From an uncultured Gammaproteobacteria bacterium (GTDB taxonomy: Bacteria; Patescibacteriota; Patescibacteriia; UBA9934; GWF2-40-263): DNA of 64,000 nt. Both the position numbers and the translations under genes were made by a program. Below are positions 3,757-63,368 of the stretch, piece by piece (the first letter of the stretch is position 1; each line of letters opens with the position of its first letter). The notes under the pieces were generated by a model. The model saw only the letters and a program-made list of their open reading frames with translations. It made no database searches and had not been told where the DNA came from. The DNA is taken from positions 9,033 to 73,032 of the forward strand of contig CAYNRK010000003.1 of NCBI GenBank assembly GCA_964399675.1. Reading direction: 5' to 3'.

Positions 3757-3897
3757 CCTGTGTCATTGCGAGTCCGGCAGAGTCGGGCAAGTCCCTGCAT
3801 CCTGTGTCATTGCGAGGCCTAAAAGGCCGAAGCAATCCTCGTATAACGAAGATTGCCGCGTCGCCCCGTCTGACGGGGCTCCTCGCAATGACACAGG
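3757..3897. repeat. nested palindromic repeat element (family GTCATTGCGAG / CTCGCAATGAC), two tandem 5' arms plus internal hairpins
   Basis: cctgtgtcattgcgag occurs at 3757 and 3801. Its exact reverse complement cctcgcaatgacacagg is at 3881-3897. Internal modules are gaagcaatcctcgtataacgaagattgc and gccccgtctgacggggc. Confidence 0.85.
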
Positions 3898-3930
3898 ACG
3901 CGAGATGCAAAGCAACGACAAAAACAAAAT

Positions 3931-4221
3931 ATGAATCTAAAACCAATCAATGATCACATTGTGATCAAAGCAGTTTCAAAAGAAGAAACTTCAGCTGCTG
4001 GAATTATTATTCCAGACACAATTGATAAAGAACGTTCTGAGCGCGGGGAGGTTGTCTCTGTTGGTCCAGGCCGAGAACTTGATAATGGTTCTCGATCAAC
4101 AATGGATGTTTCAGCCGGCCAGCAAGTACTTTTTAAAAAGTATGCTCCAGATGAAGTAAAGATTGATGGACAAGAATATTTAATCATTCGCATGGATGAT
4201 GTAATGGCTATTATTGAATAA
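3931..4221 (+). CDS. groES: co-chaperonin GroES
   Basis: 96 aa; [13 protein letters not shown]...GEVVSVGPG... is a typical Cpn10 sequence. Immediately upstream of groEL. Confidence 0.95.
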
Positions 4222-4229
4222 TCAAAACT

Positions 4230-5858
4230 ATGGCAAAACAAATTTCATTTAATGAGGAGGTGCGTGCATCACTTAAGTGTGGTGTGGATCAGTTGGCAGA
4301 TGCTGTAAAAATTACACTTGGTCCAAAAGGCCGAAATGTTATTCTTGATCGCGGCTTTGGTGCTCCAACAGTTACAAAGGATGGAGTTACAGTTGCAAAA
4401 GAAGTTGAGCTTGAGGACAAGTTTGAAAACTTGGGGGCTGAACTTGTAAAAGAAGTTGCAAGCAAAACAAACGATGTTGCAGGAGACGGAACCACAACCG
4501 CAACGGTTCTTGCTCAGTCCATGATTCATGAAGGCTTGCGAAATGTCACAGCCGGCACAAACCCGCAGGCATTAAGACGTGGAATTGAAAAAGGTGTTGA
4601 GGTTTTGGTAAGTGAAATCAAAGACAGAATCGCAACTCCAATTACTGGAGAAGATATTGAAAAAGTTGCATCAATTTCTGCAAATGATCCCGAGATCGGG
4701 GGAGTGATTGCAAAGGCAATGGATTCTGTTGGAGAAAACGGCGTGATCACAGTAGAAGAGTCACAGTCATTTGGTGTTGAAGTTGAGGTGGTTGAAGGAA
4801 TGCAATTTGATAAAGGTTATGTTTCTCCATACATGATCACCAATCCAGACCGAATGGAAGCAGAGTATCAGGATGCTTATGTTTTAATCACAGACAAAAA
4901 GATCAGTTCTGTTCAGGAGATTGTGCCGCTTCTTGAAAAGGTGGCAACTGCTGGCAAAAAGGAGCTTGTAATTTTGTGTGAGGATTTGGATGGTGAAGCG
5001 CTTGCAACTTTGGTTGTAAACAAATTGCGAGGTGCGTTTAATGCGCTTGCAATCAAGGCGCCGGGATTTGGAGATCGAAAAAAGGCCATGCTTCAGGACA
5101 TTGCGATTTTAACAGGTGCGAAAGTTGTTTCAGAAGAAGTCGGGCTTAAACTTGATAACGTTGAATTGTCTGATCTTGGGCAAGTTCGAAAGATTGTTTC
5201 CAACAAAGACCAAACAACACTTGTTGAAGGTCATGGTGAGAAAGGCGCAATTGAAGAGCGTGTGAATCAACTTAGAACTCAACTTGAGCAAACAACTTCT
5301 GATTTTGAAAAAGAAAAAATTCAAGAACGAATCGCAAAGCTTGCTGGTGGAGTTGCTGTTATCAAAGTTGGTGCTGCAACAGAAACAGAAATGAAAGAAA
5401 AGAAGCACAGAATTGAAGATGCAGTTTCAGCAACCAAGGCTGCTGTTGAAGAGGGAATTGTTCCAGGTGGTGGTGTTGCTCTTATTCGAAGCAGAAACGC
5501 GCTTGATAATATCAATCTTGAAAAGGATGAACAAGTTGGAATTGATATTTTAAAGCGTGCACTTGAAGAGCCTTTGCGCATGATTGCTTCAAACGCAGGA
5601 ACAGAAGGTTCTGTTGTTGCAGAGCGAGTGCGGGCTGGAGATGGGGCGTTTGGATATAATGCCTTAAAGGATCGATATGAAGATTTAGTTACCGCAGGTA
5701 TTGTTGATCCTGCAAAGGTAACACGATCAGCACTTCAAAACGCTGCGTCTATCGCAATTATGATCATCACAACAGAAGCTGCTGTTACAGAGATTCCAAA
5801 AGATGAAGAGCCAGCACCGGCCGGAATGCCGCCGGGAGGAATGGGTGGAATGTATTAG
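4230..5858 (+). CDS. groEL: chaperonin GroEL (Cpn60)
   Basis: 542 aa; [10 protein letters not shown]..., ...GGGVALIR..., C-terminal PPGGMGGMY (GGM tail). Confidence 0.97.
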
Positions 5859-5864
5859 TAGAAA

Positions 5865-5965
5865 TATATTGAAATAAGTGGAAACTAATTGAAATAAATG
5901 GAAATAGGTTGTATTCAATCTATTTCTATTTTATTTCTGCCTATTTCTACTTATTTCCATTTTTG
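5865..5965 (+). terminator. compound stem-loop / probable groESL terminator
   Basis: Inner hairpin gaaatag-N12-ctatttc is nested within a longer inverted repeat (tgaaataagtggaaa ... tttctacttatttcca), followed by TTTTTG. Confidence 0.45.
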
Positions 5966-5991
5966 TTAGAATGTTTATATAAACAAAAATT

Positions 5992-6312
5992 ATGACTTCA
6001 CAAAAAGCTCCAACAAAAGACGAGAAACTTTTAAGTGCAATTGGATATTTGGGCGTGCTTTGCATTGTGCCACTTATTCTAAAACGCAAAAGTGCATACG
6101 CACAGCATCATGGCAAGCAAGGTCTTGTGATTCTTATCGCATGGCTGATCCTTTGGGTAGGTAACATTATTCCGATTCTTGGCCAAATCGTTTGGGTTCT
6201 CGGATCCTTTGCGCTTCTCATCCTTGTTATTTTGGGCGTGATTAATGCTTTTAATGGCAGGATGTGGAAAATGCCGTATCTAGGATCGTTTGCCAAAAAA
6301 TTCAAGTTTTAA
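5992..6312 (+). CDS. small membrane protein (DUF4870-like; 3 TM)
   Basis: 106 aa. N-terminal ...LSAIGYLGVLCIVPLIL..KSAYAQHHGKQGLVI... resembles the DUF4870 family. Confidence 0.5.
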   Translation: MTSQKAPTKDEKLLSAIGYLGVLCIVPLILKRKSAYAQHHGKQGLVILIAWLILWVGNIIPILGQIVWVLGSFALLILVILGVINAFNGRMWKMPYLGSFAKKFKF

Positions 6313-61502: not shown

Positions 61503-61508
61503 CCACAA

Positions 61509-61537
61509 GTCTGCCCGCACCTGAGCTGCGGGCAGAC
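61509..61537 (+). terminator. hairpin gtctgcccgca-cctgagc-tgcgggcagac immediately after rseP (terminator candidate; no U-tract)
   Basis: Perfect 11-bp stem, read directly. Confidence 0.45.
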
Positions 61538-61539
61538 CA

Positions 61540-61978
61540 CACCCTGCGTCGTTGCGAGGCCTGTTAGACGGGTCGAAGCAATTTCCGTGTCTCGCACACT
61601 GCGTCGTTGCGAGCCCCCTTTCGTGAAACGGGGCGAAGCCCGTCCGAACGGCCGCAAGGCCGGGCGGGCAATCTCCGTAAAGAATTCCCTCGTGTCCTGC
61701 ACCTTGTGTCATTGCGAGCGAAGCGAAGCAATCTTCGTAAAGAATTATGGGGGACAGTCACGTTGTATATAATTTCGGCAGTACTCACTATCGTTCCGTG
61801 CTGGCGAAATTATATACAACGTACCTGTTGTGGAGATGCTGGGGGTTCGTCGGAGAATTGCGTAGGACAGTCACGTTTTGTCATCTCGACCGAGGCGCTA
61901 GCCGAGCGGAGAGATCCCGAATATCAGAGATCCCTCGGCTTCGGCCCGTCGGACGGGCCTTCGCTCGAGATGACACAA
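61540..61978. repeat. large composite palindromic repeat cluster (~440 bp; at least 3 tandem A-type units + B unit + C-type unit) filling the rseP-pheS intergenic region
   Basis: ctgcgtcgttgcgaggc..., gtgtctcgcacactgcgtcgttgcgagccccctttcgtgaaacgggg..., tgtcattgcgagcgaagcgaagcaatcttcgtaaagaatt, B-unit 22-bp inverted repeat, ggttcgtcggaga, then the C-type unit tgtcatctcgaccgagg...cgctcgagatgaca. Confidence 0.9.
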
Positions 61979-62000
61979 TAATACGGAGGATTATGTATAT

Positions 62001-63056
62001 ATGAAAAAGGATTTAGAACAACTTAAAAAAGATTTTGAAAAGTTGGTTGATAAAGCAACTGACAGAGATTCTTTGGAGGAATTGAAGAATCAGTTTTTGG
62101 GTCGTAAAGGAAAGTTTAAAAAACTCATGAAAGAAGTTGCGTCTTTGGCCAATGATGAGCGAAAAGTAGTTGGGAAGATTGGGAATGAAATTAAAGAATC
62201 TATTGAGAGTGCGTATGGAGACAAGGAAAAGCAGATAAAAAGTCAGGAGGCTGTGTTGCGCGAACAGGATGAACAGATTGATATTACAGAGCCAGGACGT
62301 TTTAATGAGGAAGGGCATTTGCATCCTGTGAGTAAGGCCATTGAAGAGATCGAGGATATATTTGCTCGAATTGGATTTACTGCTGTGCGAGCACCTGAAA
62401 TTGATTGGGATTATTATGCGTTTGAATCTCTGAACATGCCAAAAGATCATCCAGCGCGCGATGATTGGGAAACGTTTTTTATTGATGCACCAGAAGGGAA
62501 AAAGAAAAAACAGGGCAAGCTTGTGCTTACACCACATACATCAAACTCACAGGTGCGCACAATGGAAACTCAAGAACCACCGATTCGCATGATAAATATT
62601 GGTCGTTGTTACAGACGTCAGATCGACATTAGTCACACACCAATGTTTCATCAGTTTGAAGGTATGATGATTGATAAAGGGGTAAGTGTTGCGCATTTAA
62701 AAGGTATTCTGGATTATTTTGCTAAAACTTACTTTGGTCCGGATCGTCGTACGCGTTTGCGTCCGCATCACTTCCGTTTTACTGAACCAAGTTTTGAAGT
62801 TGATATTAGTTGTGATGCTTGTGGTGGAGATGAAAAGGGCAATTGTCGGCTTTGTAAAGCAGGTTGGCTTGAACTTGGTGGTGCTGGCATGACACACCCA
62901 AATGTAATTAAAGCTGGTGGTTTGGATCCTGAAGTTTATACAGGGTTTGCATTTGGTTGGGGAATTGAAAGGACTTTAATGATGAGGGCTGGTATCAAGA
63001 TTCATGATATAAGAATTTTATATAAAAACGATTTGCGATTCGTGAGGCAGTTTTAA
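62001..63056 (+). CDS. pheS: phenylalanyl-tRNA synthetase alpha subunit
   Basis: Class II motifs ..FRFTEPSFEVD.., GWLELGGAGM, FGWGIERTLM; RBS GGAGGA at 61985. Confidence 0.93.
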   Translation: MKKDLEQLKKDFEKLVDKATDRDSLEELKNQFLGRKGKFKKLMKEVASLANDERKVVGKIGNEIKESIESAYGDKEKQIKSQEAVLREQDEQIDITEPGRFNEEGHLHPVSKAIEEIEDIFARIGFTAVRAPEIDWDYYAFESLNMPKDHPARDDWETFFIDAPEGKKKKQGKLVLTPHTSNSQVRTMETQEPPIRMINIGRCYRRQIDISHTPMFHQFEGMMIDKGVSVAHLKGILDYFAKTYFGPDRRTRLRPHHFRFTEPSFEVDISCDACGGDEKGNCRLCKAGWLELGGAGMTHPNVIKAGGLDPEVYTGFAFGWGIERTLMMRAGIKIHDIRILYKNDLRFVRQF

Positions 63057-63057
63057 C

Positions 63058-63368
63058 ATTGTCATCTCGACCGAGGTTCCTGCCGAGCGGAGAGATCTCG
63101 AAGATTGCTTCGTAGAGGATTTTGGGTGACAGTCACGTTGTATATAATTTCGGCAGTACTCGCGTGGCTCCGTGCTGGCGAAATTATATACAACGTACCT
63201 GTTGTGGAGATCCTGAATGTTCGTTGGAGGATTGTGAAAGGCTTTTGGGATCATGCCATTTCCCCGCGTCGTTGCGAGCCCCCTACGTGAAAAGGGGCGA
63301 AGCAATCTCCGTAGAGAATTATATACAACGTACCTGTTGTGGAGATGCTGGGGGTTCGTCGGAGGTTT
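63058..63368. repeat. composite palindromic repeat cluster (C-unit, B-unit, A/H-unit, partial B/M3) between pheS and pheT
   Basis: attgtcatctcgaccgagg...gagatctcgaagattgcttcgta; gacagtcacgttgtatataatttcggcag...ctggcgaaattatatacaacgt; gcgtcgttgcgagccccctacgtgaaaagggg; ...ggttcgtcggagg. Confidence 0.9.

Follow-up and report, generated by a model that had tools for sequence, protein, structure and literature searches.

Nested hairpin repeats at gene junctions of an Uhrbacteria genome: a probable divergent class of oriented, CGTC-tagged, Ssn-linked elements

The window (the whole stretch of 64,000 nucleotides analyzed) carries a family of nested palindromic, REP/MITE-like repeats at gene junctions and in 5' leaders, and in this respect the initial annotation was correct. 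The six loci it described were confirmed, their sequences being present where reported and far above chance: GYGTCRTTGCGAG with up to two mismatches matched 16 times versus 3.25 +/- 1.9 in shuffled sequences, CGAAGCAATCTYCGTA with up to three mismatches 12 times versus 0.9, the B arm six times versus 0, and the C arm three times versus 0.04. For every motif tested, the observed count was reached by none of the shuffles. The 84 kb sampled (window and flanks) contain eight loci, none of them in the 9.7 kb that precede the window. As had been noted, the repeats (1318 bp in total) are richer in G+C than their host (55% versus 42% for the window). The features are the following, no strand being assigned to palindromes:

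3757..3772, + strand: solitary left-arm fragment CCTGTGTCATTGCGAG (exact motif match)
3797..3901: complete head-to-head A/G palindrome in the groES leader (motif matches, nhmmer E 2.7e-6)
6318..6413: complete head-to-head A/G palindrome (nhmmer E 1e-5 and 1.6e-4, two arms)
20346..20414: head-to-head A/G palindrome after the gene for a 3226-aa protein (motif matches, nhmmer)
36151..36192, + strand: single A/G half unit, in frame (nhmmer E 3.9e-7), missed in the initial annotation
51323..51403, + strand: degenerate arm (ACGTCATTGCTC) and A/G half unit 51355-51403 (nhmmer E 6.6e-6)
51420..51491, + strand: B unit, with tag AGTCAC, 22-bp A+T-rich hairpin and tail ACCTGT
51490..51519, + strand: decayed A/G right arm, earlier read as GTTGTGGAGATCCTG plus M3 (comparison with 6364-6380)
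61546..61739, + strand: head-to-tail array of three A/G half units (motif matches, nhmmer)
61756..61856, + strand: B unit (61756-61828) and decayed A/G right arm (61827-61856)
61879..61975: C-type palindrome (TGTCATCTCGACCGAGG ... CGCTCGAGATGACA) upstream of pheS
63060..63233, + strand: mosaic between pheS and pheT
63266..63368, + strand: A/G half unit 63266-63313 and composite copy (nhmmer E 7.5e-6, D3, D7)
66145-66267 (window-equivalent positions): eighth locus, C type, just past the window

The A/G unit is oriented and consists of (C/T)GTCAT-TGCGAG, a small hairpin, CGAAGCAAT and C(Y..). It occurs solo, in head-to-tail arrays and in head-to-head pairs folding as cloverleaf-like palindromes. 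The earlier description counted at least five recombining modules. Of these, A, H and G turned out to be parts of this one unit and not free modules, and M3 together with GTTGTGGAGATSCTG is a decayed A/G right arm (GGAGAT[CCTGA]TGgTTCGTCGG versus GGAGATTGCTTCGTCGG at 6364-6380), of which four copies (family D3) show 89-93% identity. The stem of the unit itself is weak (5 bp, ATTGC/GCAAT), and its GTTGC and TTTGC variants lack compensating changes. The predicted folds of complete units were far more stable than those of shuffled sequences (-41 to -59 kcal/mol, z -4.3 to -10.3). Neither target-site duplications nor clean insertion boundaries could be defined for the repeats.

The palindrome in the groES leader, located downstream of a CIRCE-like operator, comprises a left arm (3804-3817), a loop hairpin (3817-3827), a G hairpin (3828-3860), an H3 hairpin (3863-3879) and a right arm (3881-3897), with a predicted fold of an outer stem and three hairpins (-58.6 kcal/mol, z -9.5); the solitary fragment at 3757..3772 pairs with 3882-3897 as a 16-nt inverted repeat. 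The second palindrome ends 12 nt upstream of the prfB start and holds a GCGAAGC loop hairpin and H3 (GGCCCGTCGGACGGACC; -46.3 kcal/mol, z -4.3). The third has an internal deletion in its left arm (GCGTTATTGCGA joined to AGCAATC; -41 kcal/mol, z -10.3) and received no terminator flag. The repeats had been thought to lie only in intergenic DNA; this does not hold, since the half unit at 36151..36192, with no mismatch to either core motif, is inserted in frame in ORF 36040-36633 (encoding ...SPASLRGAEGDEAIS...), where it is translated as ASLRGAEGDEAIS in a variable linker behind a membrane helix. Homologues of this ORF carry unrelated sequence of similar length at that position. The clpC-side locus starts at about 51323, with the degenerate extra arm, versus 51341 in the earlier description; its half unit has the loop hairpin CCCCTTTCGTGAAAAGGGG, and the neighbouring M48 and clpC genes are both on the minus strand, so that 51323..51403 is antisense to the mRNA. 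The B unit at 51420..51491 also folds stably (-35.9 kcal/mol, z -8.2). Behind the M50 protease gene, an extra hairpin (61509-61537) precedes the array, whose half units (61546-61589, 61601-61681 and 61706-61739) differ in their loop hairpins, the second being interrupted at 61640-61668 by a nested insertion of 29 nt (51388-51403 versus 61634-61681). The C palindrome contains H3 at 61943-61959 (-53.3 kcal/mol, z -5.95), and this hairpin occupies differing internal positions in two C copies. The mosaic between pheS and pheT is made up of a C left arm (63060-63076), a minus-strand piece of an A/G right arm (63097-63112), a B unit (63131-63202) and then a decayed right arm; in the composite copy within 63266..63368 the B hairpin is deleted between AATTAT direct repeats.

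The same gene junctions were compared in relatives with PheS 77-80% identical, in which they overlap or abut. In L139, L140 and a JGI relative, the M50 gene shares 4 nt with pheS, and the pheS-pheT gap is 1-2 nt; in L140, the M48 gene and clpC overlap by 4 nt. The corresponding spacers in the window (M50/pheS, pheS/pheT and M48/clpC) measure 498, 331 and 208 nt. L139 and L140 yielded no repeat motifs over 38 kb. The repeats are insertions, since these junctions lack a spacer in the relatives and nested insertions can be seen.

Searching with the pattern TTGCGAG...CGAAGCAATC alone matched at least 119 stretches. The matches listed come from Alpha-, Gamma- and Deltaproteobacteria, Bacteroidota, Chloroflexota, Cyanobacteria, Planctomycetota, Zixibacteria, Ignavibacteria and Patescibacteria, and include at least 32 complete palindromes. 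Among these listed matches, positions outside the search pattern were also conserved (G-4 in 94%, T-3 in 93%, C-2 in 96%, A-1 in 88%), and the first tail base was C or T in 94%. The conserved flanking positions therefore define the frame (C/T)GTCA...AATC-YRG, identical to that of the Neisseria NTS, CGTCATTCCCGCGMAVGCGGGAATCYRG (Chenal et al., 2025, Nat Commun 16:2388, PMC11893778). An nhmmer profile of 153 half units, all from outside the window, recovered eight units in the window (E < 1e-3, the best being 2.7e-9); the same profile gave no matches in the relatives and flanks. The A/G unit is thus pan-bacterial, and the family is not private to this genome, as near-identical A/G units occur in many phyla.

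In other genomes, A/G arms flank both sides of eight distinct Ssn genes, two of them in Patescibacteria (L181 and L182; the others in L080, L111, L160, L143 and the P0306 and P0359 groups). The bracketed gene encodes a single-domain GIY-YIG nuclease of about 95 aa belonging to the Ssn family, and the two A/G units are inverted. All proteins tested passed the Pfam GIY-YIG threshold. Among 38 genes sampled solely by protein, 28 had flanks sharing an exact inverted repeat of 12 nt or longer, the rate expected by our own estimate being about 0.0015 per locus. Arm sequence varies among Ssn gene groups, and an identical 106-aa Ssn with its arms adjoins at least three different downstream genes. Since the same arms bracket Ssn genes elsewhere, the window copies can be regarded as gene-less miniature forms. 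No Ssn-type gene was found in the 84 kb of this genome; the sole GIY-YIG ORF in the window (39475-39711) has no Ssn C-terminal motif and is nearest to the two arm-less homologues.

Two described groups are close to these repeats. The Ssn-related motifs (SRM), which include the Neisseria NTS and extended dRS3 and are associated with Ssn GIY-YIG nucleases cleaving single strands strand-specifically (PMC11893778), share the orientation, the 5' (C/T)GTCAT tag, the hairpin, the 3' AATC-Y tail with C directly after the palindrome, the inverted units around a gene of about 95 codons for a single-domain GIY-YIG protein, the many gene-less copies clustered around genes, and the presence in several phyla. 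They differ in the stem, which is TCCCGCG...CGCGGGA in SRM and ATTGCGAG...CGAAGCAAT with a nested loop mini-hairpin in the A/G unit. The A/G unit fails the published degenerate SRM search sequence, which matched neither the window nor the A/G arms flanking Ssn genes elsewhere. The A/G-associated nucleases carry IKGGSRxKK and other Ssn IKxWxRxWK, and neither Patescibacteria nor the A/G motif is mentioned in the main text of Chenal et al. The CGTC-tagged REPs CGTC-1 to CGTC-4, including Rickettsia RPE-4 and RPE-6 (Di Nocera, De Gregorio and Rocco, 2013, BMC Genomics 14:522, PMC3733652), share the CGTC/TGTC tag, a stem beginning with AT, a short 3' tail (starting with CCAG in other phyla), head-to-head dimers, occasional in-frame copies in genes and the lack of a known dedicated transposase. 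However, they are defined by stems of 8-9 bp with loops of 4-5 nt, and their peptides VIPAKAGIQ and VIPGLDPGIH imply ATTCC or ATCCC stems, whereas the window unit combines a 5-bp stem with an internal loop plus a nested hairpin. Head-to-tail arrays such as it forms are negligible in CGTC-1 to CGTC-4.

Based on these comparisons, the window repeats are probably a divergent class of oriented, CGTC-tagged, Ssn-linked hairpin repeats filling Uhrbacteria gene junctions, within a wider kind that would embrace CGTC REPs, Neisseria dRS3/NTS and SRM. Membership in this family is shown here by sequence and profile matches; the arm-gene-arm architecture is observed elsewhere, Patescibacteria included. 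The complete window palindromes have that structure minus the gene and would therefore be miniature, non-autonomous forms, and single and head-to-tail units would be solo arms. Insertion probably followed the split of the Uhrbacteria lineage from relatives with 77-80% identical PheS, with stop/start junctions of once-overlapping genes and 5' leaders as the main targets and, once, a variable protein linker in frame; nested small palindromes (loop hairpins, H3, B), tandem juxtaposition and deletion would have elaborated them later. Neisseria SsnA binds its unit solely in single-stranded form, on just one of the strands, and cleaves the DNA a few nucleotides upstream (PMC11893778). By analogy, a cognate Ssn might bind and cut the A/G unit, and if so it could both promote the spread of the repeats and restrict how incoming DNA recombines.

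Selection of the elements primarily as cis-acting RNA structures of housekeeping genes (leaders, stabilizers or terminators), and not as selfish or nuclease-linked DNA, is improbable. Their sites (groES, prfB, clpC, pheS and pheT leaders, and behind the giant gene) and very stable predicted folds would suit it, and secondary effects on mRNA are plausible. However, relatives lack the elements at the same junctions, the same composite is sense to the mRNA at pheS and pheT and antisense at clpC, one copy lies within an ORF, the same sequence stands beside unrelated genes in many phyla, and no Rfam matches were obtained. A terminator role, proposed initially, is not supported, no T run being present behind any element and the arrays lying in both orientations relative to transcription.

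Still less probable are REPIN-like elements moved by an IS200/IS605-type tyrosine (HUH) transposase, a partner that the initial annotation had suggested seeking, or by a RAYT. The repeats do resemble GTAG REPs with RAYT and BIME-type clusters, being oriented, hairpin-forming, short and paired head-to-head without target-site duplications, with a single nuclease-like gene flanked by repeats and intergenic mosaic clusters; moreover, the seven single units of the window all share one (G-rich) DNA strand, whatever the gene strand. Yet other genomes showed no significant bias of this kind (36 of 59, p = 0.12), the tag is (C/T)GTC and not GTAG, and the gene between the arms elsewhere encodes a GIY-YIG Ssn and not an HUH fold; in the work of Di Nocera et al. 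(PMC3733652), CGTC repeats were not found to flank any gene for a tyrosine transposase. When 2661 ORFs from the 119 repeat loci listed were compared all against all, no recurrent transposase family emerged: among the matches listed, only the large ABC-ATPase and short-chain dehydrogenase families recurred for ORFs of at least 100 aa, and GIY-YIG was the only small recurrent family beside the arms.

The Ssn-linked reading concerns the A/G unit; no link of B and C units to any nuclease was found, and both appear to be lineage-specific. A B-unit 19-mer gave chance matches only in metagenome_contigs, a weak test of absence elsewhere because this collection also missed the organism's own JGI contig. 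A local duplication or assembly artefact limited to this stretch is highly improbable. In its favour, the B composite is present at 51.4, 61.7 and 63.1 kb only and was not found in that collection; against it, A/G units, which are pan-bacterial, occur between 3.7 and 63 kb and a C unit lies at 66 kb, four independent assemblies (ENA, JGI, Logan) are 100% identical over loci 1 and 2, and PheS with repeat-filled flanks was found on 13 contigs.

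The six repeat loci described in the initial annotation were all present, and the quoted sequences sat at their positions in every case. Motif counts were compared with those of dinucleotide-preserving shuffles, and for no motif was the observed count reached by any shuffle.

Motif counts, observed and as shuffle means
GYGTCRTTGCGAG, up to 2 mismatches: observed 16, shuffle mean 3.25
CGAAGCAATCTYCGTA, up to 3 mismatches: observed 12, shuffle mean 0.9
B arm: observed 6, shuffle mean 0
C arm: observed 3, shuffle mean 0.04

The repeats sum to 1318 bp with 55% G+C (42% for the window overall), and folding of complete units gave -41 to -59 kcal/mol (z -4.3 to -10.3). 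The stretch bearing loci 1 and 2 showed a 100% match among four independent assemblies and therefore is no assembly artefact. A seventh copy was located at 36151-36192, a perfect half unit (arm) lying in frame within ORF 36040-36633 and encoding the peptide ASLRGAEGDEAIS, so that the repeats are not exclusively intergenic as first supposed. It falls in a variable linker past the membrane helix of this ORF; its reading as a net insertion was rejected, the linker of homologues being equally long and insertion being indistinguishable from replacement. An eighth locus, of C type, was found upstream of dnaE (window-equivalent 66145-66267), and no repeats were present in the 9.7 kb that precede the window.

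The modules A, H and G, previously listed as separate, are portions of a single oriented unit (the A/G unit), (C/T)GTC(A/G)T-TGCGAG-[small hairpin]-CGAAGCAAT-C-Y..., in which only ATTGC/GCAAT pair (5 bp), around a loop of 5-29 nt that often has its own hairpin; the first stem pair is broken by GTTGC variants. The arrangements found in the window were the following.

A/G units in the window
3797-3901: complete palindrome, two A/G units head to head
6318-6413: complete palindrome, two A/G units head to head
20346-20414: complete palindrome, two A/G units head to head
3757 (start), plus strand: single A/G unit
36151 (start), plus strand: single A/G unit
51355 (start), plus strand: single A/G unit
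63266 (start), plus strand: single A/G unit
61546-61739: head-to-tail array of three A/G units

The complete palindromes are predicted to fold into an outer stem of 14-17 bp plus three hairpins. M3 was also merged into this unit, since together with GTTGTGGAGATSCTG it represents a decayed A/G right arm (GGAGAT[CCTGA]TGgTTCGTCGG, aligned against GGAGATTGCTTCGTCGG at 6364-6380). B is an A+T-rich hairpin of 22 bp with tag AGTCAC and tail ACCTGT, and it occupies the place where an A/G pair formerly had its apical loop. The composite of about 135 nt that holds it occurs three times in the window, and in a fourth copy (63298-63370) the hairpin has been lost between AATTAT direct repeats. C (TGTCATCTCGA...) has its tag and three-hairpin plan in common with the A/G unit. 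The 17-nt hairpin H3 (GGCCCGTCNGACGGGCC) also occurs within A/G units and differs in internal position between the two complete C copies, and the sequence CGAAGC followed by AATCTCCGTA is split at 61640-61668 by a 29-nt insertion; therefore, these small palindromes have been inserted into one another.

The names of PheS homologues placed the window in Candidatus Uhrbacteria, Patescibacteria. The gene order clpC-M48 ... M50-pheS-pheT was kept in three relatives, whose PheS proteins are 77-80% identical, and three of its junctions were compared.

Gene junctions in relatives and in the window
M50/pheS: 4-nt overlap in relatives; 498 nt of repeats in the window
pheS/pheT: 1-2 nt apart in relatives; 331 nt of repeats in the window
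M48/clpC: 4-nt overlap in one relative (L140); 208 nt of repeats in the window

None of the A, G, B and C motifs was detected in 38 kb from two relatives. As the relatives have neither spacer nor motifs, the repeats are lineage-specific insertions into formerly coupled junctions, and the gap-free junctions together with the nested palindromes sustained the earlier proposal of inserted, nested, REP/MITE-like elements. In such compact genomes, it is unexpected to find 200-500 nt of structured DNA separating genes whose counterparts in relatives abut or overlap. No target-site duplications were found at the three complete copies, and neither duplications nor exact insertion boundaries could be defined at any junction.

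A role of the repeats as terminators, also proposed initially, was not confirmed. Searches of the window and 17 other loci against Rfam 15 at gathering score returned only tRNAs, and an E-value scan of 61400-63500 against Rfam families gave only chance-level matches. The composite is found in either orientation relative to transcription, which makes an RNA function tied to one strand unlikely. A CIRCE-like operator (TTAGCACTC-N9-GTTTGCTAA, 3715-3741) lies upstream of groES, and this operator and the groES start codon flank the A/G palindrome, which is therefore probably part of the heat-shock mRNA leader. Single units in the window were on the plus (G-rich) strand in 7/7 cases, whatever the strand of the gene. 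A strand bias relative to replication, considered as a sign of a single-strand mechanism, is suggestive in the window but was discarded as evidence, being not significant in other genomes (36/59, p = 0.12).

The family was initially regarded as specific to this genome. This view was contradicted: with each species represented by a single genome, a scan for TTGCGAG-N(0-30)-CGAAGCAATC retrieved at least 119 stretches from at least nine phyla, with 32 complete palindromes among the matches listed. By our own estimate, about 2000 single chance matches are possible in 596 Gb, and conservation was therefore examined at positions outside the search pattern. In 170 units of other genomes these unsearched positions were strongly conserved (G-4 94%, T-3 93%, C-2 96%, A-1 88%), the first tail base was Y in 94%, and the commonest tail was CAG. 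A profile of 153 half units from other genomes, none of them from the window, recovered eight window units with E < 1e-3 (best 2.7e-9) and gave no match in the relatives. In other genomes, 50 pairs in head-to-head arrangement were counted, and 88 units stood alone. In a Chloroflexus sp. (JANWYE010000031.1; locus L014, 1340-1960), three to four A/G left half units were observed in head-to-tail arrays with a spacing of 46-51 nt and one right arm closing each, the same habit as at window 61546-61739. A 19-mer of B gave 15 matches in a metagenome collection, all of them chance matches in unrelated coding DNA; this absence is a weak test, since the JGI contig of the organism itself was not returned either. 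A literature search with the core motifs, as sequence and as peptide, retrieved nothing relevant.

Among named systems, classical MITEs have terminal inverted repeats, target-site duplications and a DDE-transposase IS, whereas the window repeats have inverted arms but no duplications, and no related IS was found. REPIN/RAYT systems combine a GTAG tag with a flanked Y1 (HUH) transposase gene; the window repeats lack GTAG. An all-versus-all comparison of the ORFs (100 aa or longer) in the 119 listed loci revealed no recurring transposase family, so that the IS200/RAYT-type partner enzyme suggested at first had to be abandoned. An apparent enrichment of uvrA beside the repeats proved to be an artefact of ABC ATPases clustering together; only one locus has uvrA, not adjacent to the repeat.

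A closer likeness was found with the CGTC-tagged REP superfamily, which has in-frame gene copies and "no dedicated transposase" and includes Neisseria dRS3 and Rickettsia RPE-4 and RPE-6 (Di Nocera 2013, PMC3733652). Judged by its sequence, the window frame (C/T)GTCAT...AATC-YRG is the frame of this superfamily, and the CGTC or TGTC tag lies likewise at one end, outside the stem. The window units differ from its stem of 8-9 bp opening A-T, T-A with a loop of 4-5 nt. CGTC REPs are mainly head-to-head dimers, with negligible head-to-tail arrangements; the window has three head-to-head palindromes plus a head-to-tail array of three.

The second likeness was with the Ssn-related motifs (SRM) of small single-domain GIY-YIG nucleases, which have an oriented tag HGTCWY 5' of a hairpin, cleavage requiring GTC (Chenal 2025, PMC11893778). 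The window starts (C/T)GTCAT and (C)GTCGT carry this tag, except that the GTCGT variants violate W. The window units also have the conserved C right after the palindrome and the tail RNCYNB (AATCYRG in the Neisseria version, NTS): in 9/9 G-motif matches with no more than one mismatch GCAATC precedes a Y, and copies that are more degenerate (6346, 61574 and 3845) depart from this pattern. The published search sequence HGTCWYN(0-2)YYVSBRHN(0-5)WNVSBRGN(0-2)RNCYNB gave no match in the window (shuffles 0.2) or in four A/G loci of other genomes (L080, L111, L143 and L160), but the CGTC-1-like arms of L164 and L168 do fit it. In Neisseria, SsnA binds NTS solely as single-stranded DNA of one strand, requires for binding the C after the palindrome, cuts a few nt upstream of NTS and reduces transformation by NTS-bearing DNA (PMC11893778).

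A/G units were found to flank a cd10448-type single-domain GIY-YIG gene (ssn) in L080, L160, L143, L181, L182 and the P0306 and P0359 groups, and L111 was counted as well; in L080 the arms enclose the small ORF exactly, and in L111 a left arm is immediately followed by it. In the two Paceibacterota genomes (L181, 2945-3365; L182, 2853-3381) a unit TGTCATTGCGAGG...CGAAGCAATCTAAT precedes ssn and TAGATTGCTTCG...CTCGCAATGACA follows it, between the genes for the two subunits of a 2-oxoacid:ferredoxin oxidoreductase, a further case in Patescibacteria of insertion at an operon junction. When 38 loci were selected by protein homology alone, ignoring the arms, an exact inverted repeat of at least 12 nt across both gene flanks was present in 28/38 (about 0.0015 expected per locus, by our own estimate), and arms were missing only from the two weakest homologues. 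Arm sequence varied by gene group (CGTC-1-like, CGTC-3-like and GTCAC types, and the A/G type of L160 and L143), and A/G-type nucleases have IKGGSRxKK where the others have IKxWxRxWK. Relatives of the A/G-type nucleases amounted to at least 8000 scored candidates, all with E <= 1e-5, the named matches belonging to Flavobacterium, Xanthobacteraceae, cyanobacteria, Chloroflexota, Desulfobacteraceae, Elusimicrobia and Paceibacterota. An identical Ssn, accompanied by its arms, adjoins no fewer than three different genes downstream; this speaks for the gene-bearing form being mobile. L085 had been chosen because of an A/G unit; 1.7 kb from this unit, at 17-410, an Ssn-like GIY-YIG gene has two classic TGTCATTCCGCAGGAATC units, arranged head to head, downstream of it, and the two motif classes share one genome. 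The association of Ssn with its motifs is itself already published, 71% of Ssn homologues having such motifs nearby (Chenal et al. 2025, PMC11893778); the A/G motif, Patescibacteria and the 2013 REP paper all go unmentioned in the main text of that paper.

In the window organism, no ssn flanked by arms was found within the window, and tblastn detected no Ssn gene in 84 kb. A GIY-YIG ORF of a non-Ssn subfamily (39475-39711, plus strand; Pfam 55.7 bits) was rejected as the cognate nuclease: it lacks the Ssn C-terminal motif and flanking A/G arms, and its nearest relatives are the two arm-less homologues. This ORF is wedged between tRNA genes 39259-39349 and 39715-39800. Ahead of it lie long perfect hairpins (39351-39395) as well as an inverted repeat (39349-39367 paired with 39439-39457), which begins at the last base of the first tRNA gene and extends just downstream. 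The region 39460-39711 may be a separate selfish element.

These observations can be combined in a reading that we offer tentatively and hold to be rather doubtful as a whole. The A/G class would be a separate nuclease-motif lineage, whose arm-ssn-arm forms would be selfish elements with true mobility: they would enter the stop/start junctions of coupled genes and afterwards decay to gene-less palindromes. B, and C with its tag TGTCAT, would represent additional motif classes, so far undescribed, with their own partners, and the repeats would mark DNA for single-strand restriction in a candidate-phylum host dependent on DNA uptake. If true, the "transposase" (or homing nuclease) that the CGTC REP superfamily has been missing would be found in the Ssn-type GIY-YIG nucleases.

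The likeness of the A/G unit to both systems joins two literatures without mutual citation, on CGTC REPs (2013) and on the Ssn family (2025), and extends both to a motif class overlooked by the published search pattern and now seen in candidate-phylum (Patescibacteria) genomes. For annotation, it accounts for spurious SLRGAEGDEAIS-type peptides and odd intergenic expansions; for biotechnology, every new motif class implies a new single-strand DNA nuclease specificity.

Other features were observed in the window. Three G+C islands (2692-3615, 20445-24265 and 25800-28200; 51-65% G+C versus 40% for the genome) look like horizontally acquired genes; they carry ORFs that match nothing in Pfam, besides a Ser/Thr kinase (22271-24265) and also an M23 peptidase (26137-28125), and repeat loci (3757 and 20348) border on two of them. 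A G+C-rich hairpin (GTCTGCCCGCACCT/AGCTGCGGGCAGAC, 61509-61537), outside the described modules and occurring once in the window, lies right after the M50 protease stop codon. Downstream of groEL there are long imperfect A+T-rich inverted repeats (5854-5962), within which 5896-5931 was marked as terminator-like by a consensus scan. Two neighbouring paralogues on the minus strand (43819-46124; 390 and 385 aa) are 72% identical over 300 nt (44505-44804 versus 45689-45988). Finally, in the prfB region (6424-7553) the listed ORF starts at 6534, and an ATG at 6424, 12 nt past the repeat, opens a short upstream frame consistent with the programmed +1 frameshift that is usual for RF2.
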